Of a DNA stretch of 42,656 nt, positions 131 through 39,258 are shown piece by piece. Numbering within the stretch: position 1 is the first letter of the stretch; every line of letters starts with the position of its first letter. Both the position numbers and the translations under genes were made by a program. The DNA is from an uncultured Anaeroplasmataceae bacterium. Its GTDB lineage: Bacteria > Bacillota_I > Bacilli_A > Acholeplasmatales > Anaeroplasmataceae. The notes below the pieces were generated by a model, which was not told the origin of the DNA, made no database searches, and saw nothing but the letters and a program-made list of their open reading frames with translations. Location of the stretch: positions 1 to 42,656 of the forward strand of contig CAZSIA010000001.1 of NCBI GenBank assembly GCA_964606905.1, written 5' to 3'.

Positions 131-215
131 TGGTGGATGGGGACGGTTTCGAACCGCCGAACCCTTAGGGAGCAGATTTACAGTCTGCCGCGTTTAGCCT
201 CTTCGCTACCCATCC
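131..215 (-). tRNA. tRNA-Tyr (anticodon GTA), class II with long variable arm, CCA encoded
   Basis: Reverse complement is GGATGGGTAGCGAAGAGGCTAAACGCGGCAGACTGTAAATCTGCTCCCTAAGGGTTCGGCGGTTCGAAACCGTCCCCATCCACCA. It has a 7-bp acceptor stem GGATGGG/CCCATCC, an anticodon stem GCAGA/TCTGC with loop CTGTAAA, a T-arm GGTTCGAAACC and a terminal CCA. Confidence 0.95.
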
Positions 216-7030: not shown

Positions 7031-8152
7031 TTACTTCTTAACTTTCTTATAAATCAAATCATATTTTTCATAAGTCTTTGTTCCTAAATACTTATAAATT
7101 TGACCATTAGTAATATTACCTGGGTAATAAACAGGTAAATCAGTTATGCCTTCAAATTCAGAATCAGTTAACATTGCATTTAAAACACTCGTTTGTGTAG
7201 GGCAATATCCAACATATTGAGCATTTCTTAATGAGTTTTCATATCCAATCATAAAATCAATAAACTTATAAGCTAATTCTTCATTCATTGAATTATTTGG
7301 AATAACCATACCGTCAAAAAATACATTATTATTCATAGGCGCTATCATATCAAAAGAAATATGAGGGTCATCTGATTCTTCATATACTGAATAAAGTGTA
7401 TCAAAGAAGTCGCCAGAATATACTAAAGCTAAATCATACTTTCCGCTAGCTACGCCAGTTTTAAGTTCATCAGTAGCCCATGCATGATAATTCATACCCT
7501 CAAGCGAACTACTAGCTTTTTCTAATTCATCTTCTTTTTTTGTATTTAAACTATATCCATTATAAAGAAGTGAACTTGCGATACTATCGCGTGCACTTGC
7601 GTACATTCCAATCTTTACAGCACCTAATAATTCTTTTTCAAACAATACATTCCAACCATTTTCTTCAATAATTGAAACTTGCTCTTCACTTAAATTATCT
7701 GTATTATACATAATTCCCAAACTTCCCCAAAAATAAGGAACACAATAAGCTTCTAATTCTGGACAGTCTTTTCGAATCAAATTCATTAATTTAGAATCAA
7801 AATTATTCACGTTATAATTTTCCAATTTTGAAAAATCAAGAGGTTTAATAATAGGAACGTCTACTCCTTCTTCATCACATAAAATCATTTGACCAATCAT
7901 GTAATCTGATGGAATTGCGATATCATAAGGAGCGGCATCACTCATAATTTTTGAAAACATTGTTTCATTTGATTGAGCTATATCTAAAATCACATTGCAG
8001 TTATATAACTCTTCAAATTCCTCAATTAAATCTTCATCAATATATTCATCCCAATTCAAGATGTATAAATCGTTAGTATTATTACAACCAACTAAATTAA
8101 AAGATAAGACAGCAATTAAGAAAAGAAAAACCAACTCAATTTTATTTTTCAC
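7031..8152 (-). CDS. potD: spermidine/putrescine ABC transporter substrate-binding lipoprotein
   Basis: 373 aa with signal peptide and lipobox LVGC. It has PotD/PotF-like composition and is the last gene of a potABCD string. Confidence 0.85.
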   Translation of the reverse strand: MKNKIELVFLFLIAVLSFNLVGCNNTNDLYILNWDEYIDEDLIEEFEELYNCNVILDIAQSNETMFSKIMSDAAPYDIAIPSDYMIGQMILCDEEGVDVPIIKPLDFSKLENYNVNNFDSKLMNLIRKDCPELEAYCVPYFWGSLGIMYNTDNLSEEQVSIIEENGWNVLFEKELLGAVKIGMYASARDSIASSLLYNGYSLNTKKEDELEKASSSLEGMNYHAWATDELKTGVASGKYDLALVYSGDFFDTLYSVYEESDDPHISFDMIAPMNNNVFFDGMVIPNNSMNEELAYKFIDFMIGYENSLRNAQYVGYCPTQTSVLNAMLTDSEFEGITDLPVYYPGNITNGQIYKYLGTKTYEKYDLIYKKVKK

Positions 8153-8154
8153 TA

Positions 8155-9027
8155 TTATCTAACCGCCTTTCTTTTCGCTTGGTTTTTATTTGAAAGAACG
8201 TTATAAACTACTAAAACTACAAACATCACAACCGTTAAAATCGAATAAAATGCGTAAGCACTTTGAATATTTCCATAGCGGTTATTTCCACTACTTGAAT
8301 AAATCCAAATTGATAAATTTTGAATCTTAGCCCCACTTACAAAATATGAAATAGTAAAATCATCAATACTCATTGTAAACGCTAAGACAGCGCCAGAAAA
8401 AATCCCTCCCATAATCGATGGGATAATAACCTTTCTTAAGGCTTGGTTTGGTTTACAACCTAAATCTAGTGCCGCATCAAATAGATTTTCATCAATTTCA
8501 TTAAGTTTTGGTAGTACACTTAAAACTACATAAGGTAGACTAAAGAAAATATGGGAAATTAATAATGTAGTATATCCTAATGGATATCTAATATTAAGCA
8601 TATTTCCAATAACCTTAAATACAAAGAATAAAAATACACCAGAAACTATATCAGCATTTAAAATTGGAAGATTATTTAGTAGAATTAAACCTTGTCTTTT
8701 CTTTTTCGATAAAGAATTAATACCGATGGCGAATAAAGTTCCTAAAACTGTTGAGATAACAGTAGATAAAATAGAAATTGTCAAAGTATTCATAATAGCG
8801 TCTGTCAATTTCTTCTTTGAAAACATTTGTAAATACCAATTAAATGTAAAGTCTTTAAACTCGTTTCCTACAAGTGATGAGTTAAAAGATAAAATAATGA
8901 TAAATAAAACCGGAAGATACATTAATACTAAAATAATAGAAATATAAATAATTTGTGCAATCTTCCAAGAAGCATTTTTAACTTTTATTGACGTTGGAGT
9001 AGGAACAACATATGTATCATTCATCAT
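8155..9027 (-). CDS. potC: spermidine/putrescine ABC transporter permease
   Basis: 290 aa, six TM helices, EAA-type loop (FDAALDLGCKPNQALRKVIIP). Its start overlaps the potB stop. Confidence 0.85.
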   Translation of the reverse strand: MMNDTYVVPTPTSIKVKNASWKIAQIIYISIILVLMYLPVLFIIILSFNSSLVGNEFKDFTFNWYLQMFSKKKLTDAIMNTLTISILSTVISTVLGTLFAIGINSLSKKKRQGLILLNNLPILNADIVSGVFLFFVFKVIGNMLNIRYPLGYTTLLISHIFFSLPYVVLSVLPKLNEIDENLFDAALDLGCKPNQALRKVIIPSIMGGIFSGAVLAFTMSIDDFTISYFVSGAKIQNLSIWIYSSSGNNRYGNIQSAYAFYSILTVVMFVVLVVYNVLSNKNQAKRKAVR

Positions 9028-9857
9028 AACAATGTCTCTCCTTCCGGATCAGCTTTAGAAATAATCACAAGAGAACCGATAACTACAACAATAATAATTA
9101 ACGAAATCATACAGCCAATATTATATTGAGTAGCTACACCTTTCGCTCCTGAAATATAATTTTCTATTACATTTCCAATTAAATTAATTTTACCATTACC
9201 AATTATTTCTGGAATCGCAAAACCAGTAGCTGCAGGTAAAAACACCATAATTATTCCACTAGTAACACCCTTCATTGATAAAGGTAAAGTAACTTTTAAA
9301 AATGTTTTAATAGGTGTCGCACCTAAATCTTGACTAGCTTCAAATAAACTACGATCAATTTTTTGCAACTGAGTAAAGATTGGCAAAATCATAAATGGCA
9401 TATACATTAAAATCATAACTAATACAACCGCAAATTGTGTACCAGATAGATTTAGACTAATACCAAAAAATGATTCTAATAATCCTCCTTCACTCAACAT
9501 GTTATTAATTATCTTTAGACGCAATAACATACAAATCCACATTGGGAATAAAATTAATAAAATTGTTAAATACTTATTTTTAATTTTACTCATTGAAATA
9601 ATATACGAAACTGGATAGCCAAAAATAACACAACCAACTGTAGCTAAAAAGGCTAATTTTATACTATTCCAAAATGCTAATAAATTTTGTGCAGTAAAAA
9701 CAGATGAAACATGATCAACACTAAATCTAAACGAATCAAACGTTAAAGAATATTTAGTAGATGAGAAAGATAACAACGTTAAAAGAATTAAAGGTAATAA
9801 TACCAATACTCCTAACCAAATAACATACGGAATTGAAAAATGCTTAAATCGTTTCAT
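9024..9857 (-). CDS. potB: spermidine/putrescine ABC transporter permease
   Basis: 277 aa, six TM helices, EAA loop (FEASQDLGATPIKTFLKVTLP). Confidence 0.85.
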   Translation of the reverse strand: MKRFKHFSIPYVIWLGVLVLLPLILLTLLSFSSTKYSLTFDSFRFSVDHVSSVFTAQNLLAFWNSIKLAFLATVGCVIFGYPVSYIISMSKIKNKYLTILLILFPMWICMLLRLKIINNMLSEGGLLESFFGISLNLSGTQFAVVLVMILMYMPFMILPIFTQLQKIDRSLFEASQDLGATPIKTFLKVTLPLSMKGVTSGIIMVFLPAATGFAIPEIIGNGKINLIGNVIENYISGAKGVATQYNIGCMISLIIIVVVIGSLVIISKADPEGETLL

Positions 9858-11404
9858 TAACTTTCTTTTTCAACTTTCATCAAATGGATTTCATATGGAT
9901 CTACACTTAAACCGATTTGATCCCCAACTTTAGCCACTTCATAATCATGAATCACAAATTCCATTCCATTAATATTTGCACAAATTTCAAAATGAACACC
10001 TTTAAACACAACAGATTCTACAACACCAACAAGTTTTGCTTTATTAAGTGGAACCCTATCAAAGTCTTCCGGTCTAATTACAACATCACATTCTTCACCA
10101 ACGGCAAAGTTTTCATCAACACAATCAAATACTTGACCCATAAATTTAACTTTTTTATTGCCAACATATTCTCCTCTAATAATATTTGATTCACCGATAA
10201 AGTTCGCTACAAAGCGATTTTTTGGTTCATTATAAATATCTTCAGGAGTACCAATTTGTTGAATATAACCGTTATTCATAACAACAACTGTATCGCTCAT
10301 TGTTAAAGCTTCTTCTTGGTCATGAGTTACAAAGATAAATGTAATACCCAGCTTCCTTTGCATTTCTTTTAATTCATACTGCATGTTTTGTCTAAGCTTT
10401 AAATCAAGTGCGGCTAAAGGTTCATCTAACAACAAAATTTTAGGTCTATTAACTACTGCTCTAGCAATAGCTACTCGTTGTTGTTGCCCACCAGATAATG
10501 TATCAATTTTACGATGTTCAAAACCTTCTAATTTAACTAATTTTAAAGCCGCTAAAACTGCTTCATTAATTTGCTTTTTAGTCATCATCAAAGATTTAGC
10601 ACTTTTTATCTCATCTGCTTTATCCTTATGAGCTTGCTTTAATTCTGCTTCCAAACGGTCTAATTCAGCCCAAACCGCAATACTCCTAAGACGTTTTAAT
10701 TCTACTTCATATTTTTTAGTAGCTTTACTTTTACTAACACCACTAGCTACAGCTTCTTCAATAAGTTCATTAATTTCATTAATACGTTTTTTAGCGTTTT
10801 TAACTTCATCATCTTTATTCCACTCAATTTCAATTAACGCTTCAAGTTCAGGAATAATCTTTTCATATTTCTTTTCAACTTCTTCTAATCTACTTTCAAT
10901 TAGTTTTTGTTTTTCTTCGAAAATTTCTTCTTTAATCTTAACTTTTAGCGCCTTAAGTTGACCTCTAAGTTCAATCTTTTCCTCTTTAGTAATACTTTTA
11001 ACGTTTAATTTTCGTTGAATTTCTTTTCTTTCAGCTTCATGACTACGTCTAACATTACTTTTCAATTCCTCAAAAATTCGGTTATAATTTCTTAAACCAA
11101 AAGCTACATTATCAAAAATAGACAAATGTGGAAATAATGCATAACGTTGGAAAACTGTATTAATCGGACGTTGATAAGGTGGAAGATTATTAACTACTTC
11201 ACCATTTAAAATAATTTCTCCACTATCTGGTTCTTCAAATCCACCGATCATTCTAAGTGTTGTTGTTTTACCACAACCGCTAGGCCCTAAAAAAGTAATA
11301 AATTCATTGTCATTTACATAAAGATTCATCCCTTTTACAACTACATTATCACCATAAGCTTTTACTATATTTTTTAACTCAATAATTTTCTTTGCCATTT
11401 CCAT
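9857..11404 (-). CDS. potA: spermidine/putrescine ABC transporter ATPase with a large in-frame coiled-coil insertion
   Basis: Walker A GPSGCGKTT, Q-loop VFQRYALFPH, signature LSGGQQQRVAIARA, Walker B ILLLDEP and H-loop FVTHDQ. The C-terminal TOBE-like domain is present. About 168 extra K/E-rich residues lie between the Q-loop region and the signature motif. Confidence 0.85.
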   Translation of the reverse strand: MEMAKKIIELKNIVKAYGDNVVVKGMNLYVNDNEFITFLGPSGCGKTTTLRMIGGFEEPDSGEIILNGEVVNNLPPYQRPINTVFQRYALFPHLSIFDNVAFGLRNYNRIFEELKSNVRRSHEAERKEIQRKLNVKSITKEEKIELRGQLKALKVKIKEEIFEEKQKLIESRLEEVEKKYEKIIPELEALIEIEWNKDDEVKNAKKRINEINELIEEAVASGVSKSKATKKYEVELKRLRSIAVWAELDRLEAELKQAHKDKADEIKSAKSLMMTKKQINEAVLAALKLVKLEGFEHRKIDTLSGGQQQRVAIARAVVNRPKILLLDEPLAALDLKLRQNMQYELKEMQRKLGITFIFVTHDQEEALTMSDTVVVMNNGYIQQIGTPEDIYNEPKNRFVANFIGESNIIRGEYVGNKKVKFMGQVFDCVDENFAVGEECDVVIRPEDFDRVPLNKAKLVGVVESVVFKGVHFEICANINGMEFVIHDYEVAKVGDQIGLSVDPYEIHLMKVEKES

Positions 11405-12914: not shown

Positions 12915-13018
12915 GTCCAACTAAGTCCTATAATCACAACAATACGCTGCTTAAGGCTGCTACCTTCCGATCCTGACCTGGTTCACATGTATTCCTTGAA
13001 AATAAAACTTAGTTGAAC
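12915..13018 (-). ncRNA. ffs: signal recognition particle RNA, small (4.5S-like) type
   Basis: Minus strand contains AACCAGGTCAGGATCGGAAGGTAGCAGCCTTAAGCAGC, the conserved domain IV (compare E. coli ACCAGGUCAGGUCCGGAAGGAAGCAGCCAAGGCAG). The terminal helix CAACTAAGT/ACTTAGTTG closes the molecule and is followed by a T-run. The island is GC-rich against the AT-rich background. The tadA-ffs neighbourhood matches B. subtilis. Confidence 0.85.
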
Positions 13019-14448: not shown

Positions 14449-15456
14449 TCATTTATAATTTTCGATAATTTTTAAAGCAATTAAAACTGCATTACTGGCG
14501 GCACCTCTACGTAAATTATCCGCAACACAATAAAACAATAAAGAATTGCTAGAACAAAGATCTTTTCTTATTCTACCTACATAAACATAATCAGTATTAT
14601 TTGCAACAGTTGATACTGGATATATACTATTTTTTGTATCATCTAATATTATAATGCTTTTTTGTTTTTTTAACTCTTCTATAACTTCATCAATATCAAA
14701 AGTATTTTCAATTTCAACCCTAACACTTACACCGTGACAGTATAAAACAGGAACTCTTACACAAGTAGAAGACACACATAAATTGGGTAAATGTAAAATC
14801 TTTCGTGTTTCATTAACCATCTTCATTTCCTCTTTTGTATATCCATTATCTAAAAATATATCAATTTGAGGAATACACGTCTTACTAATATCATATGGAT
14901 AAAAATTTCCTTTTTCATTTTTTCTTGAAAGTTCTAAATCATTAATTCCATTCATACCACTACCACTGACTGCTTGAAATGTTGTATAATTGACTTTTTT
15001 TAAACCATATTTTTTTAAACAATTTAAAACTAAAACACACTGAATAGTAGAACAATTTGGATTTGATATCAATCTAGAACAATCATTAAAATCACTAAAA
15101 TTAATTTCCGGAACAATTAACGCAACGTCTTTATTCATTCTATAAAAACTAGAATTATCAATAACAATACAACCTGCCTTTAACGCAATAAGACACCACT
15201 TTTCTGAAATAGTAGCCTTAGCTGTAAAAAAAGCAAAATCAACATCAACAAATGATTTATCTGTTAACTTTTCAACAAAATAAACTTTATTATTATAAAT
15301 AATTTCTTTACCCACACTTTTATCACTAGCGAACAAAAAAAGCTTATTAATTGGAAAATTATATTCTGATAAAACTTTTAATAAAACACTTCCTACAACC
15401 CCTGTAGCACCCACTATAGCCACATTATATTTTTTTATAATTAATCCCTCTTTCAA
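14449..15456 (-). CDS. asd: aspartate-semialdehyde dehydrogenase
   Basis: 335 aa with NAD-binding N-terminus [13 protein letters not shown] and active-site context SNPNCSTI. The start codon is uncertain (see findings). Confidence 0.85.
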
Positions 15457-19525: not shown

Positions 19526-19627
19526 TTTTCATCACCACACCTTATATATATGCCCATAACTATAAAGAGTGCTAAATAAACTAGAAAAAGAAAAGGAATT
19601 GTAGTATAATAACGATTGGTGATTGTT

Positions 19628-21007
19628 ATGTTATCAAGAATAGAAAAAGATGAATTCGGCGAAATGGAATTACCCCTTAATGCTTATTACGGAATACAAT
19701 CATTAAGAAACAAAGAAAATTTCGCTGTAACAAAAATGAAAATATATAAGCAAATAATAAAATCATTAGCGATTGTTAAAAAAGCTTGTGCCTTATCAAA
19801 TTTTGATGCAGGTTATTTGTCTATTGAAAAAGCCAAGGCCATAGCCGCAGCATGCGATGAAGTCATAAATGGACGATTTTATAATCAATTTATTACGGAC
19901 GCAGTTCAAGGTGGTTCTTGTACCGCCTTTAACATCAATATGAATGAAGTATTATCTAATAGAGCCACAGAAATTTTAGGTGGAGAATTAGGAAAATACG
20001 ATTTAGTTACACTTGAAGATGTCAACTTATTTCAATCCGCTAATGACGTAGTACCAACTGCCGCTAAACATTCAATGATTGTTATTGGAAAAGGATTAAT
20101 AGTTGAAGCTAAAAAACTATTTAAAAGTTTTCAAGATAAAGCAAAAAAATATAATAAAGTTCTTAAGTTAGGTCGAAACCATTTACAAGATAGTCTTCCT
20201 ATATCCTTTGGCCAATTATTTGGTTCAATGGCTTCTACTATTACACGCGATATTACTAGACTAAATAAATCCCTTGAGAATCTATACACCGTAAATTTAG
20301 GAACCGGATCAATCGGTGTTTTATATTATTCTGACGATAAATATGTTGAAAGTATATTAAAAAGATTTAATGAATTTACAGGAATGGAATTTGTTCATCC
20401 GGATAACACAATAGACGAATCAAGAAACTTAGATGAATTTGTAGAATTAGGAAATACTATAAAATTAATGGCAATCAATCTAAGCAAAACTGCAACCGAC
20501 ATAAGACTGATGGCAAGTGGTCCAAACTGTGGATTTAATGAAGTAAAATTACCAGCATACGAAAGACTAGATGGACTTAACTGCTCACAGGCAAGTCAAA
20601 GTATTCCAGAAATTGTAAACCAAGTTTGCTTCTTAATAATTGGAAAAGAAACTTCTATTACATTAGCCGCAGAACATGGAGAAATGGAAGCTAACGCTTT
20701 CGCATCTATCGTTTATTCATTAATTTTTGATTGCCTAGAATATATGCGTAGAGCCTTAAGAATATTAAGAGAATATTGTATTGAAGGTATGATTATAAAT
20801 GAAGTTGATTGTGCACAAAACATTGAAGAAAGCGATGGAATAATCGTTGCATTGTTAGGTAAAGTTGATTATCAAACTTGTATTAACATCCTTGAAGAAA
20901 CTGTGAAAAATGGAAAAACAATTAAAGAAGTTTGCTTAGAAATGAATATTATGAGCGAAGAAAAACTAAATAAATTATTAACTGTTGAAAATATAAAGGT
21001 AAAATAA
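19628..21007 (+). CDS. aspartate ammonia-lyase/class II fumarase superfamily protein with a degenerate active site
   Basis: Collinear with AspA from RIEKDEFGEMELP..AYYG to the C-terminus (DIRLMASGP...IPEIVNQVCFLIIG). The SS-loop GSSxMPxKxNP is replaced by LDGLNCSQASQ. The ATG at 19628 has GGTGAT 4 nt upstream; the track starts at the TTG at 19616. Confidence 0.8.
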   Translation: MLSRIEKDEFGEMELPLNAYYGIQSLRNKENFAVTKMKIYKQIIKSLAIVKKACALSNFDAGYLSIEKAKAIAAACDEVINGRFYNQFITDAVQGGSCTAFNINMNEVLSNRATEILGGELGKYDLVTLEDVNLFQSANDVVPTAAKHSMIVIGKGLIVEAKKLFKSFQDKAKKYNKVLKLGRNHLQDSLPISFGQLFGSMASTITRDITRLNKSLENLYTVNLGTGSIGVLYYSDDKYVESILKRFNEFTGMEFVHPDNTIDESRNLDEFVELGNTIKLMAINLSKTATDIRLMASGPNCGFNEVKLPAYERLDGLNCSQASQSIPEIVNQVCFLIIGKETSITLAAEHGEMEANAFASIVYSLIFDCLEYMRRALRILREYCIEGMIINEVDCAQNIEESDGIIVALLGKVDYQTCINILEETVKNGKTIKEVCLEMNIMSEEKLNKLLTVENIKVK

Positions 21008-27003: not shown

Positions 27004-27537
27004 TTATTCCGCAAGATCAATTGTTTGGTCAAGTCCACTAGATACAAATCTATTATCCCTTTGCAATCGATAATAGGCATAAAGATTCGTAACAACAACA
27101 ATTATAACGGATGTTAAAATATCTTGTTCATCATGAAAAGGGTGAGGTGCATGATATAAATCTGCTTTATGATTATAAAAATCATGCCTTGCATGTGCAT
27201 TAAATGCCCAAACTATAATTATTACAGCTATTGTGTCTTGGACTAATTCAGGCATGCTCAAAGTAGATACTAAATCAGTCTCACCAATTTTATTAACAAA
27301 AAAATCATTTGTATATGCATAAACAATATTTCGCATACCAGTTGAAGTAATATCATCGATATAAGGCTCCGTTATTCCATTAGCTACTCCAGCACTCGTT
27401 GCGGCAATATAGGCTGGTGTTGGTGAAATATTAGTTATTACATCAAAAAAATCTTTTCGCTCATAAATAAAAATATTAAAAAACAAATCACTTATATATT
27501 GTCCAATAATTGAACCAATAACGCCAGTTCTAATCAA
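27004..27537 (-). CDS. hypothetical protein; coding status uncertain
   Basis: 177-aa ORF that opens only with a TTG lacking an SD. It has a His-rich segment HARHDFYNHKADLYHAPHPFHDEQD and two hydrophobic stretches. I recognise no family. Confidence 0.3.
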   Translation of the reverse strand: MIRTGVIGSIIGQYISDLFFNIFIYERKDFFDVITNISPTPAYIAATSAGVANGITEPYIDDITSTGMRNIVYAYTNDFFVNKIGETDLVSTLSMPELVQDTIAVIIIVWAFNAHARHDFYNHKADLYHAPHPFHDEQDILTSVIIVVVTNLYAYYRLQRDNRFVSSGLDQTIDLAE

Positions 27538-29588: not shown

Positions 29589-30440
29589 TTATTTAAATTT
29601 TCTTTTAAAAGCCAAAATTGTATTTTCCATCAAACAAGTAATAGTCATTGGCCCAACTCCGCCAGGAACCTTTGTTATTACGCTAGCGATCCTTTCAACT
29701 TCATCAAAATCAACATCACCACATAATTTTCCGTTTTCATCTCTATTAACTCCAACATCAATAACAACTGCGCCTGCCTTAACCATTTCCTTTTTAAGCA
29801 TCCTTGCCTTACCAACAGCTACAATTAAAATATCAGCTTCCCTTGTGACACTAGCTAAATCAACAGTTTTTGAATGAGCGATTGTAACTGTAGCGTTTCT
29901 ATCCAAAAGTAATTTAGAAATAGGAAGACCAACAATATTACTTCTACCAATAACTACAGCTTTTTTTCCTGCAATCTCTATATTAGCTTTTTCTAATAAT
30001 TTAATGATACCTTTAGGTGTACAAGGCAACATACATTCTTTTTTTAACCATAAATTAGCAACATTAAGTGGATGGAATCCATCTACATCCTTACTAATAG
30101 CGATACTTTCAATAATTTTTTCTTCTTTAATATGAATTGGTAATGGTAATTGAACTAAAATACCATCAACACAATCATCTTCATTTAATTCATTAATTAG
30201 ATTAATTAATTCTTCTTCACTAATCGTCTCATCTAATCTAATCGTAGTATTTTTAATCCCAACAAATTCGCAAGCTTTACTCTTACCAGTCACATAAGAA
30301 ATACTGCTTGGATTATTACCTACTAAAACAACCACTAAATGAGGAGCTCTTTGATATTTATAAACCAAGTCTAAAACCTCAAGACGCATTGCTTCTTTTA
30401 ATTCTTGGCTTAATTCTTTCCCACTAATAATTGTAGCCAC
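29589..30440 (-). CDS. folD: bifunctional methylenetetrahydrofolate dehydrogenase / methenyltetrahydrofolate cyclohydrolase
   Basis: 283 aa: YV..K.KAC, DGILVQLPLP, CTPKGI, VVIGRSNIVG.P and PGGVGPMT motifs. Confidence 0.95.
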   Translation of the reverse strand: MATIISGKELSQELKEAMRLEVLDLVYKYQRAPHLVVVLVGNNPSSISYVTGKSKACEFVGIKNTTIRLDETISEEELINLINELNEDDCVDGILVQLPLPIHIKEEKIIESIAISKDVDGFHPLNVANLWLKKECMLPCTPKGIIKLLEKANIEIAGKKAVVIGRSNIVGLPISKLLLDRNATVTIAHSKTVDLASVTREADILIVAVGKARMLKKEMVKAGAVVIDVGVNRDENGKLCGDVDFDEVERIASVITKVPGGVGPMTITCLMENTILAFKRKFK

Positions 30441-30443
30441 TTA

Positions 30444-32036
30444 TTATTCCTCCTTTAATTTCTTTAATAATTCTGTTGCTGCATAAACTGGATTTTCTGC
30501 CCCATTAGCTAAGGCAAGACCAGTATAAATTTCACCAACCTTAATATTATATTCAAAGAAATAACTAAAGTATTTATCCAATAATATATTTGTTTCTTCT
30601 TGAAGTTGGACAGGTCCAAAAGGATTTGCAAAAAAAGTTGTAACTAAGCCAGTTTCTCCAGTTGTACCTTTCGCCACTCTCGCACCTTTTTTAAACACTT
30701 CAAGTGCACTTTCTAAACTAGAAAATAATCTAATTTTACTATCTTTTTCTTCATAATTATTTGCGTAGAAAATTGCATCAACCTCAACACCCATAGTTAT
30801 ATCATCATAACTAGAAATTGGTAAAACAATACGAGCGTTTGACAAACTTGGATTCATAAAAATTGCACGGTCAAACACCTTATATGTATATCCATTTTCT
30901 AAGTCGTCAGTTCTTACAAAAGCACCTATTTCTGTACCATACGCCTTAAGTTTCCCATCATCAAATAAAAGCGTACCCATATCGTCAAATATAGTAGTCA
31001 TATCTACAACATAATCATTAGCAATCTTTCTTAAAGCTTCTAAAGTTTCACTCTTACCAGCACCACTATCACCTATTAAGATAATATTTTTTTGACGATG
31101 ATCTTTTAATGTTAAACTTACACAAGCACCGTGAATTGGCAAACCACCAACACTAATCATTTCCATATTATACGCAGTTAAAATAATCTTTTTCATATAG
31201 CCAAAATAATCTATTTCATCGCGTTCAATAAGTGAAGCTATATGAACATCATTATCTGCATCATAATAAATTCCTTCTTTAGTATCAGAACCAAATAAAA
31301 TGATAATATCAGGTTTATTTTCTTTATATTCATCATCATGTTCAAATAGGTTTGACAAAGCAAGAGCAAGTGACATATAACGGTCTTTAAAATATACAAA
31401 CACTCTTTTTTTACCAACTAAAATTGGATAACAATAAAAACCTTCTTTATCTAATCCATAAACAGGATTACTATCAATAATAGGGAAAATCCCTTGACGT
31501 TTATTTGATTTAGAATTGACAACAAATGGTGGTCTAAAAATAATACTATGTAAAACAGGAATATCTTTTAATTCGTTGTAAACAGGATAGTTTGTCCTAT
31601 TCAATAAAATAAATGCATTTCCTCCTGCTGGAAGTTCGCGCATGATATTAAATTTAACTCCCAAATTTAAACAAATCCTACGATACATATCTAAAACAGT
31701 ACGATTAAAATTATTAAATATGTCATGGAAATTTGTTTCGTTAATAACATAAGAAACACTCAAATCAGCAAACAAATATCTTTTATAATCACGCCAAAAA
31801 TCATAAATGTTTTCAACAATATGATATAAACCATTCAAACTAACAACATTATTTAAATTATTAGCTAAAACTTCTAACATAACTTCTGTTAAATCAGGTT
31901 TACTAATGATTTTATCTAATAATAAATCTGGATGTTCTTCTAAATAATCATCAACTACTGTTTTTAAAACATTATTGTGAAAATGATTAAAACCCGGATC
32001 TGTAAAATTAATAAAAAATGTTTTATCTGCCCTCAT
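30444..32036 (-). CDS. uncharacterised protein with an HPr-kinase/PEP-carboxykinase-type P-loop domain
   Basis: 530 aa. The C-terminal half reads IHGACVSLTLKDHRQKNIILIGDSGAGKSETLEALRKIANDYVVDMTTIFDDMG, with the P-loop at 31047-31073. I do not recognise the N-terminal ~300 aa. It lies 12 nt after fhs and 3 nt before folD. Confidence 0.7.
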   Translation of the reverse strand: MRADKTFFINFTDPGFNHFHNNVLKTVVDDYLEEHPDLLLDKIISKPDLTEVMLEVLANNLNNVVSLNGLYHIVENIYDFWRDYKRYLFADLSVSYVINETNFHDIFNNFNRTVLDMYRRICLNLGVKFNIMRELPAGGNAFILLNRTNYPVYNELKDIPVLHSIIFRPPFVVNSKSNKRQGIFPIIDSNPVYGLDKEGFYCYPILVGKKRVFVYFKDRYMSLALALSNLFEHDDEYKENKPDIIILFGSDTKEGIYYDADNDVHIASLIERDEIDYFGYMKKIILTAYNMEMISVGGLPIHGACVSLTLKDHRQKNIILIGDSGAGKSETLEALRKIANDYVVDMTTIFDDMGTLLFDDGKLKAYGTEIGAFVRTDDLENGYTYKVFDRAIFMNPSLSNARIVLPISSYDDITMGVEVDAIFYANNYEEKDSKIRLFSSLESALEVFKKGARVAKGTTGETGLVTTFFANPFGPVQLQEETNILLDKYFSYFFEYNIKVGEIYTGLALANGAENPVYAATELLKKLKEE

Positions 32037-32048
32037 AAATCATCACTC

Positions 32049-33716
32049 CTAAAATAATCCTACTGCCTTGCCATCAACATAATCCATTTTTAAAGCTTGT
32101 GGTACTTTTGGTAAACCAGGCATCGTCATAATAGCACCAGTTAAAACAACTATAAAACCCGCACCCTTTGAAACACGCAACTCCTTAACTGTAATTCTAA
32201 AGCCTGTAGGCCTACCCATAACCTTTGCATCATCAGTTAATGAATTAGGTGTTTTAGCCATACAAATTGGCATCTTATCATAACCTAAACGGTAAAAATC
32301 AGCAAGTTGCACTAACGCATTTTCTGTGTAATCTACACCATCAGCACCATAAATTTCCTTAGCAATTGTTTCAATTTTCTTTTCAATAGATTCGTTATAA
32401 TCATATAATTTTTCATAAGTATAATAACCATCATTTTTAGCAATTGTCTCAACAACCTTATTAGCTAAATCAACTCCACCTTCTCTACCTTTAGCAAACA
32501 CTTCAGATAAACTTACTGTATGATTATTTCTTCTAGCCCAGTCTTGCAACATTTCAATTTCACGATCAGTATCACTTAAAAAACGGTTAATTGCTACTAC
32601 ATACGGCAATTTATATTTTTTAATATTTTCAATATGTTTTGCTAAATTTGCCATACCAGCTTCAAGTGCAGGTAAATCTTCAATCGTATAATCTGTAGCA
32701 CCACCATGCATCTTAAGTGCTCTAATTGTAGCTACAATCACAACACAACTTGGTTTAATATTAGCAATAGGACATTTAATATCTAAAAACTTTTCAGCAC
32801 CCAAGTCAGCACCGAAACCAGCTTCAGTAACAACATAATCAGCTAATTTCATCGCCATTTTAGTTGCAATAATTGAATTACATCCATGTGCAATATTAGC
32901 AAATGGTCCGCCATGAATAAGCGCTGGAGTGTGATATAGTGTTTGACAAAGATTTGGCTTGATAGCATCTTTTAAAATCAAAGTTATGACACCTTCACAG
33001 CCTAAATCCCGAACAGTAACAGCTTCATCATCAAAGTTATAAGCAACCACAATATTTGCAATTCTCTCTTTTAAGTTTTCAACACTAGTAGCTAAACATA
33101 AAATCGCCATAATTTCACTAGCTACTGTAATATTAAATCCATCTTTTCTTTCAACACCATTTGACTTAGGACCTTGTCCAACAGTAACTTCTCTTAATGC
33201 GCGATCATTTAAATCTAAACATCTTTTCCAAACAATTTTTTCTGGATTAATATTTAATTCATTTCCTTGATGTAAATGATTGTCAATAATCGCACTTATT
33301 GTGTTATTCGCTGTTGTAATAGCATGCATATCACCAGTAAAATGCATATTAATATCTTCCATTGGTTGAACTTGAGCATATCCTCCACCAGCGGCACCAC
33401 CTTTAATACCTAAAACAGGCCCAAAAGAGGGTTCTCTTAAAGCAACAATGCTTTTTTTACCAATAAAAGCCAACGCATCAGCCAAACCAATCGTAGTAGT
33501 TGATTTACCTTCACCAGCTTTAGTAGGATTAATTGCTGTAACTAAGATAACTTTCCCATCTTTCTTTTCCTTTAAAGAGGAAAAAATATCTAAACTAATT
33601 TTAGCTTTATATTTCCCATAAGCTTCTAAATACTCATCACTAATATTAGCCCTTTTAGCAATTTTACTAATTAATTCCATCTCATTTTCATAAGCAATTT
33701 GTAAATCTGTTTTCAT
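32049..33716 (-). CDS. fhs: formate--tetrahydrofolate ligase
   Basis: 555 aa. [16 protein letters not shown]-type P-loop ([17 protein letters not shown]) and the [13 protein letters not shown] motif. Confidence 0.95.
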
Positions 33717-33721
33717 CTTAA

Positions 33722-34936
33722 CTACTCCTCTAATTCTTTTTTAGCATTAAAAATAATGCTTGGTAATTTAAGCGCTTCTAATTCATTTATCGCACAAAGC
33801 GCTACCCTTATACATGTTTTAGTAACGACAACATAAACATCACTATCGTGTAATTTATTCATTAAAGCCACTGGATCAGTAGAAGGAATACAAACAAAAA
33901 ATCCTTTTTCATATGGCAATAATTCTAAACCAATTCTCCTAGCTTCATTAATAAAAACTTCACTTCTTTTTTGTAACATAACAGCTACATTCTTAACTTC
34001 TTCAACAAACATTTCATAATAATATGGATTTAAAACTAATTTACTAATAACTGATATTCCTAATTTTGAAGAACTTCCCCAATTACTACGAGCTGTATAA
34101 CTAACCGCATCAACAAAATTACAAACATCTCTTTCATTCCTACTTAATAAGATATTCGCACCAATACGTAATCCATAAAGGCCAAATGTCTTCGAACCAC
34201 TAAATGCAAAATTAATTAAAACATTCTCATTTAATCTACTTAATTTATAATAACGACTTCTAATAATATTAGGATTACAATCATAAAAATCAAAATAAGC
34301 AACATCCATCAGCAAAACAAATGGATAATAAAATTCATTTAGCAAATCAACCAACTTATCATAATCGCTATCTTTCATACAAAAACCAGTAGGATTATGA
34401 CAAGGGTCATTAATGACTAAAATAATACTTTCTTGACTTTTCATTAAAGAGATAATATTTTCCCTTAAATTATCAATGTTGAAATTATTCTCTCTATCAT
34501 ATAGTTTATATTTAACAAACCCACATTCTCTTTCTCTAGCTAAAGTAATATATGTTTCCCACATAACATCAGGTACTAAAACAGCGTCATGTTTATGCAT
34601 ATAATTTTGAAATGTCGTCGCAATCGCTCCAGAACCACCTGGAGTAGCTACAACTCCAATCTTATGTGTAGTTCTAAACAAAGCTAAATAATCGCCAAAT
34701 ACCCATTTTAAAACCGCTTCTTGAAAATCCTTTCCGCCATCAGTATCAGCATATGAAAAAGCTTCATAACTAGAAACTGTTTTTAAAACCTCATTAACTG
34801 CATTAAAAGTATAAAATTTATTTGACTCATCATTAAACATTCCAATAGTCGCATTAATAACACTTGGATTATTCTTCTTAGCTTCTGCCGCTATTTGCGA
34901 TAAAGTTAAAATGTTATTAGATAATTTCTTAACCAT
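33722..34936 (-). CDS. class I aminotransferase, AspC/TyrB (aspartate/aromatic) subfamily
   Basis: 404 aa. PLP-lysine context [15 protein letters not shown] (compare AspC SYSKNFGLYNERVG) and NPTG at HNPTGF. Confidence 0.85.
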
Positions 34937-34947
34937 ACACCCATCTC

Positions 34948-35778
34948 CTAACTAAAGTAAACAATAAGAATAATTATACCTAAAAGGATTCGGTAAAAAC
35001 CAAAAACTTTAAAACTATATTTTTTAACAAAATCTAATAATTTTTTAATAACAAACAAACTAACCATTACCGCCACTAACATTCCAATCAACAAAATAAT
35101 TAGTTCATTTAAATTAATTCCATAACTTATAAGATATTTTCCCATCTTATAAATTGAAGCACCAAACATAATTGGAATTGATAAAAAGAAAGAATACTCA
35201 GTCACAACTACTCTACCTAATTTAAACATTCTACCAAAGATAATCGTTACTCCGCTACGACTTGTCCCGGGAATCAAAGCTAAAACTTGAACGCAACCAA
35301 TCATAAAAGATTTCTTCATACCTAAATCTTTAATATCCAAGACTTCTTCTTCCTTACAATAACTTTCAACTATGATAAATACTAAACCATATACAATCAG
35401 TACAATTCCAATCATTAAAAGATTATAAAAGTACGTAGTCACAAAACTATCTGTGAAAAAGCCAACAATAACTATCGGAATACAAGCTACAAAAACTTTA
35501 ATCCAAACATCTATTTTCTCTTTCTTACTATAAGTATTACTTTCCTTAAAAGGATTAAGCCTATTAAAGTAAATAATAACTACTGCAATAATCGCTCCTA
35601 ACTGAACGACCACATCAAACACCAACTTAAATTCTTCATTAAATATCGTATTACTACTTAAAAAACCTTCAAAGCTATTTAACACTAAAATAAGATGAGC
35701 TGTACTACTTATTGGTAACCACTCCGTAATACCCTCTACAACCCCTAAAACAATCGCACACAACAAATCAATTATCAT
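34948..35778 (-). CDS. uppP: undecaprenyl-diphosphate phosphatase
   Basis: 276 aa, eight TM helices, with BacA motifs GVVEGITEWLPISSTAHL and PGTSRSG. Confidence 0.9.
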   Translation of the reverse strand: MIIDLLCAIVLGVVEGITEWLPISSTAHLILVLNSFEGFLSSNTIFNEEFKLVFDVVVQLGAIIAVVIIYFNRLNPFKESNTYSKKEKIDVWIKVFVACIPIVIVGFFTDSFVTTYFYNLLMIGIVLIVYGLVFIIVESYCKEEEVLDIKDLGMKKSFMIGCVQVLALIPGTSRSGVTIIFGRMFKLGRVVVTEYSFFLSIPIMFGASIYKMGKYLISYGINLNELIILLIGMLVAVMVSLFVIKKLLDFVKKYSFKVFGFYRILLGIIILIVYFS

Positions 35779-35784
35779 GTTTTA

Positions 35785-37692
35785 TTATCCCATTATTTTA
35801 TTTGTCAAATAATTATCATTTGAAATCTTAAACTCTTTTATTATTAAAACTTCCTGAATCATTTGTTCATAAGTAATATCACTATAATATTCAAAATCAC
35901 CATTTTTTAAACTATAAAAGAAATCATCAGTAATAATATCCAAACTCTTTGGCTCTATTACAAAAGATTTTTCATCACTAAAGATATTAACACCTAAGAG
36001 ATGATTATAATTATCCAAACTATACAAACTTTTAATCGTTGAAAATAAATCAATTTGACTTAATACTCTATCAAAATCTATATTTAATCCATTTTCGATT
36101 AAATAATTATTTATTTTTCCACTTGGATCATATACAACAACAGGTATTTCTAACAATAATTTTCGATATTCTAAATCAGATAAGCTTAAACCTAATGCCT
36201 CCTCATAACCTTCCTTAGGTAAAGTATTACCATGATCACCATAAATAAGAAAAACAGTATTTTTAAGTTTTTCTTTTCCCATCATCAACAATTCGTATAG
36301 AACTTCATCAATATAATGAATTTGATTTAAATAATTTCTAAATTTATTATCCAAACCACTAAATTCATAATTAGGAAATCTATTATAAAATGGTAATCCA
36401 ACAAAAGGATAATGTGGAGATATTGTTTGAGAAAATATATAAAAATTATTTCCATCATTAAGTATCTGATTAGCCTCAGTAAAACTAAAATTTAACATCG
36501 CCCAATCAGAAACCCAACTTTTATAAAGATATGAATCGCTATATAAATCAATCGGATATAACTTGTTGAAACTTTCAAATCCCTTAAACGAATCAAACTT
36601 ATATAAATTCTCAAAAACATATTTATGAGCATAAAACCCTTCAATAGTTGGATTATATGCCTTTGATATATAATTAGGAAACATTTTTGGCAAACTCTGA
36701 ATATCAAAAAGCTTATCATACGCTTCCCAAACGATTGTTAAATCCCCTAAAGGATAATAACCAGTATTAAACGCAAACTCTGCATCACTTGTATTCCCCA
36801 TTCCAACAACAGTATGCAAATTAGAAAAGTAAAATACATTTTTATCTAAAATAAGTTTATTTAGATTAGGAGTAACAAATACACCTTCGTACTCTAAATC
36901 AATAACAAAATTACCTAAAGACTCAGCTTGAATAACAAACAAATTCATTCCTTCTAAAACACCGATATCATTAGTGTTTTTGTTATAGTTAAATAAATTA
37001 TCATCAGCAATTTTTTTATAATACAATTCATTATAATTCATACCTATTACAAGTTCTGCAAAATAATAATTATAAACTCCACATGTACTAACACCATATA
37101 AAGCATACTCGCTTCTAAAAGGCCAATTTCGCTCTACGTCTATCCTAAAGTAGATAACGCTAGAAAGTGACGATATTAAAGAAATGATTAACAAAATAAA
37201 CAAACTTCTAATTTTAATACCATTTTTACCAACAATTCTTTTTCTAACAATAAAATAAATTAACATTAACAAAACAAAAGGTAAAAATGAAAGAAATTGC
37301 CAACCTGCAAACATTTCCCTTAATCCATCATAAGCGATTTGTTCCGCAAATCCAGCATCAGGATTTCTAAATAAACTCAAATTATAAAAAGATAACATAG
37401 CTTTAAAATTTCTTGTAAAATATCCAATCAAGAATATAAAGAAATTCAAAAGAAAAGTAATAATAATCATATACTTAAATAGGATACGCTCTTTTTTTAA
37501 AAATTGGATACCTATAAGTAACAAAAGTAATAAAATCGCAACATTCCCAATTACCGCAAACAAATAATTAATCAACGGTAATTTAAACGATACAATATTA
37601 GGGTTAAGGTAAGATGATGTAACTAAAAATGTAGTTAACACATTTAAAACAAAATACAAAACAATAAATACTATTTTTACTTTCTTCATCAA
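35785..37692 (-). CDS. ltaS: LTA synthase family protein (polytopic N-domain plus extracellular sulfatase-fold domain)
   Basis: 635 aa with five N-terminal TM helices. The sulfatase-type core has ESLGNF, GNTSDAEF and YGDHG motifs. Confidence 0.8.
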   Translation of the reverse strand: MMKKVKIVFIVLYFVLNVLTTFLVTSSYLNPNIVSFKLPLINYLFAVIGNVAILLLLLLIGIQFLKKERILFKYMIIITFLLNFFIFLIGYFTRNFKAMLSFYNLSLFRNPDAGFAEQIAYDGLREMFAGWQFLSFLPFVLLMLIYFIVRKRIVGKNGIKIRSLFILLIISLISSLSSVIYFRIDVERNWPFRSEYALYGVSTCGVYNYYFAELVIGMNYNELYYKKIADDNLFNYNKNTNDIGVLEGMNLFVIQAESLGNFVIDLEYEGVFVTPNLNKLILDKNVFYFSNLHTVVGMGNTSDAEFAFNTGYYPLGDLTIVWEAYDKLFDIQSLPKMFPNYISKAYNPTIEGFYAHKYVFENLYKFDSFKGFESFNKLYPIDLYSDSYLYKSWVSDWAMLNFSFTEANQILNDGNNFYIFSQTISPHYPFVGLPFYNRFPNYEFSGLDNKFRNYLNQIHYIDEVLYELLMMGKEKLKNTVFLIYGDHGNTLPKEGYEEALGLSLSDLEYRKLLLEIPVVVYDPSGKINNYLIENGLNIDFDRVLSQIDLFSTIKSLYSLDNYNHLLGVNIFSDEKSFVIEPKSLDIITDDFFYSLKNGDFEYYSDITYEQMIQEVLIIKEFKISNDNYLTNKIMG

Positions 37693-37716
37693 TCATTCCC
37701 CTAACCAATTTAAAAC

Positions 37717-39258
37717 CTAAAATAAAGGCCCAAAAATTGATAAGAAGAAACTTAATATTTTCCTTAATGGATTCCTTTTTTTATTAACTTCTAAATCTAC
37801 TTCACTCGACAGAAGTAAAGTATCCTCAAAATCTTTTTTAATATCTTTTACAAGTGGCGTCTTCATTAATAAATTAGCACACTCAAAATGTAAAAACATA
37901 CTTCGATAATCAATATTAACAGTTCCTACAATAGCGTATTCATCATCAATCACTAACGTTTTTGCATGATTAAATCCGCCTTTAAATTTATAAATCTTTC
38001 CACCAGCGTTAAGTATTTCTGTAAAATTATTTTCGGTCATCAAATATACAAGTTTTTTATCAGCAACTTCAGGAACTAAAAAAACGACTTCAACATTTGA
38101 TTTTGCTTGATTAGCTAACGCTTTTAAAAAGACATTATCAATAATAAGATATGGTGTTGAAATATAAATGCTTTTTTTTGCATTTTCAATAAGTTTTATA
38201 TATAAATCATATGCAGGATTTAATTTATTATGTGGTCCATCCCCAAAAGGAAAGATATATCCAGCTAATATTTCAAAACTTTTCAGCGATTTATATTTTT
38301 CAACATCTAATTTAATATCAGTAGTCATGTACCAATTTTTAGCAAATAAAATCAAATAATTATAACAAGCATCTCCTGTTATTTTCATTCCATTATCACG
38401 CCAAAAACCAAAACGCTCTTTTTCATGAATATATTCATCAGCAATATTAATACCACCAACAAAAGCACAATCACCATCAATAAGTAAAATCTTTCGATGA
38501 TCTCGATAATTAATTCCCAAATTTAAAGTGATTCCTGGCGGATTATAGGCAGCAATCTGGCAATTAGGAATATCTTTTAATCTCTTTAAATCTTTCCTAC
38601 TTAAAACTTTAGGTACATTACAACCTACATAATCATAAAGAAACTTGATTTCTACACCACGAAAAGCAGCAAGTTCTAAATGATCAACAAGTTCATCCAA
38701 CATAACGCCACTAGCTACAATAAAATACTCTAAGAAAATATATTTTTCGGCTTTATCAATTTCTTCTAGCATCGCTTTAAACAAGACTCTTCCGTCATTA
38801 TAAAAAGTTTCGCCCTGATTAGTTGAAGGATATAAACCAGTAGTATTGTGCAAAAAAGTAGATAATCTATAGGATAAATTATCTTCTTCTTCAAGCGTGG
38901 TAATTATATCTTTTATTTGTACTTCGTTTTGTAAATATCCAACTATTTTTTTATGTTTTCGCTTTGGCAAATTATTTCCATTACCAAAACATAAATACAA
39001 AATTGGACCTGTACCACTAAATAACAACATAATAATAATCCATAAAATTTTATAAGAAACATTATCATTACTATTATATAAACGGATTACTAAAATAATA
39101 CTTAAAATCCATGATACTAAATAAATATATGGTAGTTGTAAACTACCAACAAATAACCACCAATAAATAATTATTTGCAAAGCTATTAAAATTAAAGCAA
39201 CAACAATACGCAAAACAACTCTTATCGGTGATTGAATAGTTCTTTCATTAATCCCCAC
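37717..39258 (-). CDS. cls: cardiolipin synthase
   Basis: 513 aa, two N-terminal TM helices, and two PLD HKD motifs (HRKILLIDGDCAFVGGINI and HAKTLVIDDEYAIVGTVNI). GTG start preceded by AAAGGGG. Confidence 0.9.
   Translation of the reverse strand: MGINERTIQSPIRVVLRIVVALILIALQIIIYWWLFVGSLQLPYIYLVSWILSIILVIRLYNSNDNVSYKILWIIIMLLFSGTGPILYLCFGNGNNLPKRKHKKIVGYLQNEVQIKDIITTLEEEDNLSYRLSTFLHNTTGLYPSTNQGETFYNDGRVLFKAMLEEIDKAEKYIFLEYFIVASGVMLDELVDHLELAAFRGVEIKFLYDYVGCNVPKVLSRKDLKRLKDIPNCQIAAYNPPGITLNLGINYRDHRKILLIDGDCAFVGGINIADEYIHEKERFGFWRDNGMKITGDACYNYLILFAKNWYMTTDIKLDVEKYKSLKSFEILAGYIFPFGDGPHNKLNPAYDLYIKLIENAKKSIYISTPYLIIDNVFLKALANQAKSNVEVVFLVPEVADKKLVYLMTENNFTEILNAGGKIYKFKGGFNHAKTLVIDDEYAIVGTVNIDYRSMFLHFECANLLMKTPLVKDIKKDFEDTLLLSSEVDLEVNKKRNPLRKILSFFLSIFGPLF

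Follow-up and report, generated by a model that had tools for sequence, protein, structure and literature searches.

A 42,656-nucleotide stretch of DNA from an uncultured Anaeroplasmataceae bacterium (contig CAZSIA010000001.1; hereinafter, the window) contains, between fhs and folD, a gene for a 530-residue protein, designated X. X is a member of a large, experimentally uncharacterised, deep-branching and very divergent branch of the phosphoenolpyruvate carboxykinase (PEPCK) fold. The residues of X that align to the catalytic core of the ATP-dependent enzyme PckA are invariant in the X family, and the gene is recurrently linked to aminotransferase genes, AsnA, fhs and purine synthesis (pur) genes. 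On balance, we lean towards the reading that X is a PEPCK-type enzyme that supplies oxaloacetate for aspartate, a purine precursor. The substrates of X, the direction of its reaction and its phosphoryl donor are what we infer from these observations.

Overall fold of X

The structure of X was modelled with AlphaFold2 on a 30-sequence alignment, with a predicted local distance difference test score of 89.8 and a predicted template-modelling score of 0.90. When the model was compared with the PDB by Foldseek, all 50 top matches listed were ATP- or GTP-dependent PEPCKs, with template-modelling (TM) scores of ~0.45–0.50 and sequence identities of 11–18%. The best match is 2pc9_D, with an E-value of 4.2e-16, a probability of 1.00, 439 aligned columns and TM scores of 0.48–0.50. 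Comparison of the X family with an alignment of eight PckA sequences, drawn from plasmid and chromosome records, gave an hhalign probability of 95% and an E-value of 8e-9 over 395 columns. This alignment supersedes a comparison of X with E. coli PckA alone, in which the register was partly wrong around H232.

As modelled, the entire X protein, beyond its P-loop region, has the PEPCK fold. A reading made from the letters of the DNA before this analysis (the sequence-only reading) had remarked that X is similar in length to PckA, which is correct, and had called its N- and C-terminal parts unplaceable; by the AlphaFold2 model, Foldseek and hhalign, both parts are the rest of a full PEPCK fold. 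The same reading had named in advance, as the outcome that would speak against it, a structural match to a characterised enzyme such as PckA. Such a match is present at the level of the fold, whereas X cannot be counted as a bona fide PckA by sequence, given scores under the cut-offs and the absence of the C-terminal segment. We thus rejected X as a member of the PckA family, though not the PckA mechanism.

X resembles the ATP-dependent class (PckA, EC 4.1.1.49; PF01293) in its two-domain fold over ~440 columns and in its length. The two are collinear in the Y-x-G-x-M-K-K motif, the Mn-binding His, the position of the P-loop, the DD strand, N-x-R, (A)K..GT.E.G and F.A.(P)FG. The identity between them is 14–18% in the Foldseek alignments, and X remains below every curated family cut-off. 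X further differs from PckA in an additional helical N-terminal module of ~130 residues with invariant residues of its own. The GTP-dependent class (EC 4.1.1.32), whose members have 590–625 residues, gives Foldseek matches equal to those of the ATP-dependent class (for example 2fah, 4wie and 3dt4; TM scores of 0.46–0.49), at 11–13% identity. In the model, X thus looks roughly equidistant from the two classes.

Residues aligned to the catalytic core of PckA

The roles of the PckA residues cited here are those in the E. coli PckA structures. In the family alignment, all residues of X that align to the PckA catalytic core are invariant. A cross-subfamily comparison of X relatives comprised 14 sequences, and Y277, K282, K283, H302, D352, E369, N400 and R402 are identical in 14/14. 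The positions and PckA counterparts of the motifs are listed in Table 1.

Specifically, the second Lys of the MKK motif stands opposite K213, a Mn2+ ligand in PckA. The P-loop of X, G322-D-S-G-A-G-K-S-E330, is opposite E. coli PckA G248-L-S-G-T-G-K-T-T256, with S324, K328 and S329 aligned to S250, K254 and T255; the functional P-loop residues are retained, while the wording GLSGTGKTT is not. For the acidic strand, hhalign paired the non-conserved N340-D341 with the DD of PckA, and the equivalence of D352 to D269 was set by manual register, supported by the invariance of D352. In the segment that follows, E369 aligns with the Glu of the corresponding PckA segment, and R375 stands in place of K288. 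Farther downstream, AKGTTGETG...FFANPFG of X aligns with AKLAGTERG...FSACFG of PckA. Judged by these alignments, X keeps the counterparts of the PckA residues that bind Mn2+, Mg2+ and phosphate and that stabilise the enolate.

Comparison of X with HprK/P

The sequence-only reading had assigned the P-loop region of X to the PEPCK/HprK superfamily and had described its Walker A motif, GDSGAGKSE, as HprK/P-type in contrast to GLSGTGKTT of PckA. We agree on both points, and the residues quoted there, IHGACVSL...NIILIGDSGAGKSETLEALRK...VVDMTTIFDDMG, are present in X at residues 301–354. X could in principle be an HprK/P-like regulatory protein kinase/phosphorylase that controls the enzymes of its operon. 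The HprK/P pattern consists of a Walker A motif G-x-S-G-x-G-K-S-E with H-G before it and an acidic DD strand after it. The Walker A motif and the next helix of X (GDSGAGKSETLEAL), together with the preceding HG (IHGA...GDSGAGKSE, residues 301–330), read like this pattern, and HprK/P and PEPCK have the P-loop domain fold in common.

Nevertheless, a regulatory kinase is very improbable. Neither Hpr_kinase_C nor Hpr_kinase_N matched any of 30 X family members in Pfam even at E≤1, as against weak, sub-threshold matches to PEPCK_ATP (PF01293) in 28/30. In the model, all 530 residues take the two-domain PEPCK fold, including a full PEPCK N-terminal domain. The Y-x-G-x-M-K-K motif, the Mn-binding His and Asp and N-x-R are invariant in X, and to our knowledge the first of these motifs is PEPCK-specific and absent from HprK/P. 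HprK/P has ~310 residues, with an N-terminal MurE-like domain and a C-terminal kinase domain, whereas X family members have 530–580 residues and X itself is ~220 residues longer than HprK/P. The genomic partners of X are metabolic enzymes, not components of the phosphotransferase system (PTS) or CcpA; the surveyed loci showed no PTS or ccpA gene adjacent to X. The proposal of an HprK-like domain embedded in X is therefore not sustained.

Genomic context across lineages

The context of X was surveyed at 94 loci (80 genome loci, the window, one Limosilactobacillus fermentum record and 12 metagenome loci, of which two nearly duplicate others). The loci fall into 46 lineages at 70% identity, and neighbours were tallied over 85 loci.

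The most telling partners of X are aspartate enzymes, including those in aminotransferase–X fusions (described below). Three loci (L001, L002 and L093) have, immediately upstream of X, an aspartate aminotransferase (AspAT) gene of type Ic (NCBIfam equivalog, 582–586 bits; cut-off 435). In L093, AspAT(Ic) and X form a bare two-gene unit amid unrelated defence and glycosyltransferase genes. This unit (L093, 1–5285) adjoins an apparent defence island with an RVT_1 reverse transcriptase, STM3845, FRG, a CAP12-PCTIR TIR-domain protein and an HTH/MqsA-like gene. The gene for AsnA (aspartate–ammonia ligase) is directly upstream of X in two further loci (L006 and L020). In Turicibacter, purF-M-N-H-D is followed by a class V aminotransferase gene and then by X; this aminotransferase is most similar to glyoxylate/phosphonate-type enzymes. 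The class I aminotransferase of the window type is found upstream of fhs-X in eight other loci (L004, L007, L016, L037, L090, L092, L095 and L097), and in L044 it adjoins X with no fhs. The aminotransferases neighbouring X thus belong to three unrelated families.

The link to fhs that the sequence-only reading had suggested surveying is conserved elsewhere: fhs is directly upstream of X in 27/85 loci and 17/46 lineages, always in the order fhs-X, and often with folD or purE next. The arrangement aminotransferase-fhs-X-folD recurs in relatives at 53–65% identity and in an Anaerotignum genome at 47%. In Anaeroplasmataceae and Acholeplasmatales, the order is (aminotransferase/guaB)-fhs-X-purE-purK-purL-purC-purF/M, or fhs-X-folD-purB.

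A PEPCK-type reaction is the simplest account of X, because X has the PEPCK fold and retains all residues aligned to the PckA core. In such a reaction, X would depend on a metal to move a phosphoryl group between enolpyruvate and a nucleotide (or a different phosphoryl carrier), and this transfer would be coupled to carboxylation or decarboxylation: phosphoenolpyruvate + CO2 + nucleoside diphosphate ↔ oxaloacetate + nucleoside triphosphate. The aminotransferase whose gene lies two positions upstream of X in the window, the probable partner enzyme, would then turn oxaloacetate into aspartate. Aspartate is consumed by PurC and PurA, and aspartate and 10-formyl-tetrahydrofolate (10-formyl-THF) are the two non-glutamine precursors of purine synthesis that come from central metabolism. 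Both aspartate and the 10-formyl-THF made by Fhs and FolD would feed purine synthesis. Because both are purine precursors, X could lie between fhs and folD or among pur genes and need not act on folates. The aspartate-linked partners, namely aminotransferases of three families, AsnA and purine operons, fit an X that supplies (or removes) oxaloacetate.

Alternatively, X may be an ATP-dependent step of one-carbon/folate metabolism, or may handle formate or CO2 for purine synthesis. Besides the position directly downstream of fhs, the fhs-X-purE trio would fit such a role, since it holds where purK and purL lie on the other strand, with a FocA-like transporter nearby. At that locus (L099), the gene for the FocA-like formate/nitrite transporter (7376–8020, minus strand) is just downstream of fhs-X-purE, and purK and purL are divergent and upstream. 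We nonetheless consider a one-carbon step improbable. X is also found away from fhs, paired with AspAT or AsnA or closing the Turicibacter pur operon. The X-like domain is fused to an aminotransferase and not to a folate enzyme, so far as Pfam shows, and no folate-binding family was detected. A role of X in place of PurK was rejected, as the two genes co-occur and purK adjoins X-purE in several loci. In six sources scanned with Rfam, namely the window plus five loci, X has no riboswitch of the ZTP, THF, purine or glycine type nearby and no adjoining T-box; the matches were distant T-boxes, tRNAs and SRP RNA only. The sequence-only reading had offered a regulatory kinase or an unassigned ATP-dependent step linked to one-carbon or amino-acid metabolism; a kinase or an additional one-carbon step is less likely than a metabolic PEPCK-type reaction, given that aspartate enzymes and purine genes recur in independent contexts.

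Features that depart from PckA and the question of substrate

Several observations weigh against X as an oxaloacetate-supplying PEPCK. The first group concerns its sequence. The Pfam model PEPCK_ATP matches X below threshold, with an E-value of 0.0035 and 16.5 bits against a cut-off of 26.5, together with generic P-loop noise. The NCBIfam PEPCK model NF006821 is collinear with X over residues 213–382 (E-value of 1.7e-8), which counts in favour of a PEPCK, but its score is 33.6 against a cut-off of 369 bits; no PEPCK model attains its curated cut-off, and no Pfam or NCBIfam model covers the X family. X is not linked to PEPCK by sequence alone, because phmmer with X against PDB sequences gave generic P-loop or spurious matches only and hmmsearch with the family profile against PDB sequences recovered no PEPCK.

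The second group concerns the parts outside the aligned core. An equivalent of the R65 substrate loop (PckA T-G-R-S-P-K-D-K) could not be identified in X by hhalign; R65 of PckA binds oxaloacetate/CO2. When the N-terminal domain of X was aligned by itself, hhalign gave a weak alignment from residue 179 onward only and nothing upstream. In place of an alignable PckA segment, the N-terminal helices of X are rich in family-specific invariant Arg and aromatic residues: E75, Y78, W81, R82, R86, Y87, Y118 and R119 are invariant within the core X family, and are not kept in the distant subfamilies. R180 (S-N-K-R-x-G) is a candidate substrate-binding arginine that, judged from its conservation, could replace PckA R65. 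At the other end, the final ~70 residues of PckA are without counterpart, residue 530 of X aligning near E. coli residue 470. X ends ~25 residues past the TGL motif (PckA NTGW), with a tail that lacks a conserved Arg. The missing part of PckA carries the adenine-binding residues R449, I452 and T455.

The third group concerns context and literature. The most frequent single neighbour of X is fhs, ahead of the aminotransferase, and in 23/46 lineages, mostly Clostridium sensu stricto, there are no informative neighbours but only conserved housekeeping synteny. The Clostridium sensu stricto block (e.g., L010, L012, L025, L026 and L028) consists of genes for ArgRS, an RNase_H_2-like protein, a metallo-beta-lactamase-fold protein and an acyltransferase, followed by X; a convergent Lrp/AsnC-type regulator gene (31 loci) and CvfB come after X. 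A full-text search of the literature found no paper on the X family and no biochemical report of its activity.

X might instead keep the PEPCK phosphoryl-transfer machinery but differ in its small-molecule substrate or its phosphoryl donor. The substrate could, for instance, be some other 2-oxo or enol acid that goes on to be transaminated, and the donor could be pyrophosphate (PPi) or polyphosphate in place of the nucleotide. X would then have a new activity tied to aspartate and purine-precursor metabolism. The lack of an identifiable R65 loop, the unique invariant helical module at the N-terminus with its several Arg, Tyr and Trp residues, the absent adenine-binding segment and the sub-cut-off scores of all curated PEPCK models would each fit such an enzyme. 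So would the wording of the P-loop, as HprK/P uses PPi as well as ATP, and the three families of adjoining aminotransferases, one of which is nearest to the glyoxylate/phosphonate-type class V. This reading is the main rival, possible but less likely. The counterparts of Y207, K212, K213, H232, D269, N331 and R333 are all kept, and the genes found right next to X, AspAT type Ic equivalogs and AsnA, are specific pointers to oxaloacetate and aspartate. Moreover, ATP- and GTP-dependent PEPCKs are as divergent from each other and yet catalyse the same reaction, and Foldseek scores X about equally against the two.

Tentatively, X could represent a fourth PEPCK-type class beside the ATP-, GTP- and PPi-dependent classes. 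Such a class would have an HprK-type P-loop, a substrate module of its own at the N-terminus and no classical adenine pocket; its phosphoryl donor might differ, or its substrate might not be oxaloacetate. Together with the aminotransferase, it would form a dedicated two-enzyme module (fused in some candidate-phylum bacteria) that feeds aspartate to purine synthesis.

Extent of the X family and its subfamilies

X is a genuine conserved gene. Its homologues form more than 5,479 clusters at 90% identity (E≤1e-3), with neighbours reaching 89% identity, and the family profile matches 704 clusters at 50% identity, 208 of these at E≤1e-30. The family is found in Clostridium sensu stricto, Anaeroplasmataceae, Acholeplasmatales, Izemoplasmatales, Turicibacter, Erysipelotrichaceae and Anaerotignum, in metagenome-assembled genomes labelled Fusobacterium and Ilyobacter, and in L. 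fermentum. In RefSeq, the name 'phosphoenolpyruvate carboxykinase' is given to some members and 'hypothetical protein' to others; databases thus already guess a PEPCK for part of the family, under a name that is unverified.

The L. fermentum homologue has 569 residues and 40% identity to X. It is encoded at 8701–10410 of CP033373.1 (strain DR9 'plasmid unnamed2', 251 kb), is annotated 'phosphoenolpyruvate carboxykinase', and is flanked by genes for cytosine deaminase and a RarA-like protein. It is the sole X homologue found across the whole plasmid collection. L. fermentum is culturable and therefore handy for experiments on X.

Candidatus Peregrinibacteria and KSB1 encode the fusions, conserved proteins of ~2,100 residues (P0269, P0270 and P0279–P0318; ~2,000–2,200 residues) whose sole name is 'aminotransferase class I/II-fold PLP-dependent enzyme'. 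In them, a class I/II aminotransferase domain is joined to a PEPCK-fold domain that resembles X and lies near residues 1415–1733, and ~1,000 further residues are without assignment. The aminotransferase domain appears intact, with NPHNPTG, DEAY and the TK...GGRRTG lysine motif. The X-like domain of the fusions (P0269, P0270 and 40 related clusters) has DYVGFFKK, LPIHGS, GDSGTGKSE, GTEEGDFMR, NPRATLP and ANNY. Unlike X, the fusions have the aminotransferase domain and long additional regions, Gly for the first Asp of the DD pair and a divergent FANPFG segment, and they are only distantly related to X (E-value of ~1e-42 against the family profile).

Two further groups of relatives depart from the X pattern. 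Three distant relatives (P0231, P0243 and P0268; 637–660 residues) keep YFGY.KK, LH(C)G, ADDMG, GTE.GAF, N.R, NNY and ANPF. They have no Walker A motif at the usual position, and carry G-D-S-R-x-G-K-S-E at the extreme C-terminus instead. In these proteins, the P-loop seems to have moved, and the fold may have undergone a permutation-like rearrangement. The other group (P0225, P0254, P0260, P0273 and P0277; 483–502 residues) has a different N-terminus, degenerate P-loops (GEERSGKSE, GCETCGIHE and GDTFSGKSE) and has lost catalytic residues (e.g., FGCLKD, HAAM and FEDCG). By their motifs, these proteins are probably inactive or repurposed paralogues of X.

The X locus in the window

The open reading frame that the sequence-only reading had given for X exists, with 530 residues and an ATG start, by the list of open reading frames and its translation. 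The coordinates are right, and the strand, which had been left unstated, is minus. The spacing is also as described: fhs ends 12 nt ahead of the X ATG, and X ends 3 nt ahead of the folD GTG. The gene order aminotransferase, fhs, X, folD on the minus strand is backed by Pfam and NCBIfam (Table 1). The AGGAG of X sits 9 nt before its ATG, and an AAGGAGG that serves folD is within the final codons of X. Downstream of folD, after a gap of 111 nt, is the gene for the radical-SAM protein YgiQ.

Table 1. Positions in the window of gene X, its motifs and its neighbours
Feature	Position	Strand	Basis or remark
Gene X, 530-residue PEPCK-fold protein	30444..32036	minus	ATG at 32036, TAA at 30444-30446
AGGAG ribosome-binding site of X	32046..32050	minus	overlaps fhs TAG stop (32049-32051); read from sequence
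Residues 1-130 of X, mostly helical N-terminal extension	31647..32036	minus	AlphaFold2 secondary structure; no alignable PckA counterpart
N-K-R, residues 178-180	31497..31505	minus	N178 and R180 kept in 12/14 compared sequences, all but two fusion proteins
DYFGYMKK, residues 276-283, counterpart of PckA Y207-G-G-E-M-K212-K213	31188..31211	minus	family-invariant; hhalign-aligned
H302 (in LPIHGA), counterpart of PckA H232, Mn2+ ligand	31131..31133	minus	placed by hhalign opposite PckA 'mHc' His; invariant
GDSGAGKSE, residues 322-330, Walker A/kinase-1a P-loop	31047..31073	minus	aligned at PckA GLSGTGKTT position
D351-D352 (in IFDDMG), counterpart of PckA D268-D269, kinase-2 (D269, Mn2+ ligand)	30981..30986	minus	manual register; invariant
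TEIGAFVR, residues 368-375, counterpart of PckA F-E-G-G-C-Y-A-K288	30912..30935	minus	manual register
N400-A-R402, counterpart of PckA N331-T-R333, phosphate/substrate-binding arginine	30831..30839	minus	hhalign; 14/14 identical
folD, bifunctional methylene-THF dehydrogenase/methenyl-THF cyclohydrolase	29589..30440	minus	GTG start 3 nt past X stop; Pfam and NCBIfam
fhs, formate-tetrahydrofolate ligase	32049..33716	minus	Pfam FTHFS, E 3.5e-256; NCBIfam equivalog, 882 bits
Class I aminotransferase, distantly AspC/TyrB-like	33722..34936	minus	Pfam Aminotran_1_2, E 3e-33; NCBIfam PRK09257, E 1e-40, below its cut-off
UppP gene	34948-35778	minus	Pfam/NCBIfam
LtaS-like sulfatase-family gene	35785-37692	minus	Pfam/NCBIfam
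Cardiolipin synthase gene (cls)	37717-39258	minus	Pfam/NCBIfam

The genes uppP, LtaS-like and cls share one same-strand array with aminotransferase-fhs-X-folD, with gaps of 5–24 nt, and an array cls-(684-residue gene)-aminotransferase-fhs-X-folD is seen again in L090. The array of the window (34948–39258 together with aminotransferase-fhs-X-folD) combines unrelated functions and indicates that the organism is a walled member of the Bacillota. Because the array also holds cell-envelope genes, the tight packing in the window is not by itself evidence of a common function. A scan for promoters and terminators gave no more matches than expected from shuffled sequence.

Two additional aspartate-metabolism genes lie ≤17 kb from X. 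One (19616–21007, plus strand) encodes an aspartate ammonia-lyase-like Lyase_1 protein, with 447 bits for the NCBIfam AspA subfamily against a cut-off of 510 and a lower score for the fumarase II model. The other (14449–15456, minus strand) encodes an aspartate-semialdehyde dehydrogenase, above cut-off. A 177-residue open reading frame with a TTG start between ygiQ and yebC (27004–27537, minus strand) has no Pfam or NCBIfam match. The Rfam matches in the window are a small bacterial SRP RNA (12921–13009, minus strand) and a tRNA gene (134–215, minus strand). The G+C content of the window is ~29%, its GC skew is strongly negative over the whole length, and almost all of its genes are on the minus strand.

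Significance

X stands for an enzyme class that is widespread, uncharacterised and amenable to testing, and that would sit at a central node of metabolism in gut Bacillota and Mollicutes-like bacteria. The evolution of the fold can also be studied in the family, whose members serve as natural experiments: a PEPCK scaffold bears an HprK-like P-loop, one subfamily has its P-loop apparently shifted to the C-terminus, and others resemble pseudoenzymes.

If the PEPCK activity is true, the anaplerotic/gluconeogenic node of many gut and rumen Bacillota would be encoded by an enzyme that the curated PEPCK models miss. The lineages concerned include Clostridium sensu stricto, Turicibacter, Erysipelotrichaceae, Anaeroplasma/Acholeplasmatales, Izemoplasmatales and L. 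fermentum, and metabolic reconstructions for X-bearing lineages would lack this step or rest on an unverified name. If the substrate or the phosphoryl donor of X differs, X would represent a new reaction on an old fold. The repeated ties of X to aminotransferases, AsnA, fhs/folD and pur operons would mark out a module for the supply of two purine precursors, aspartate and formyl-THF.

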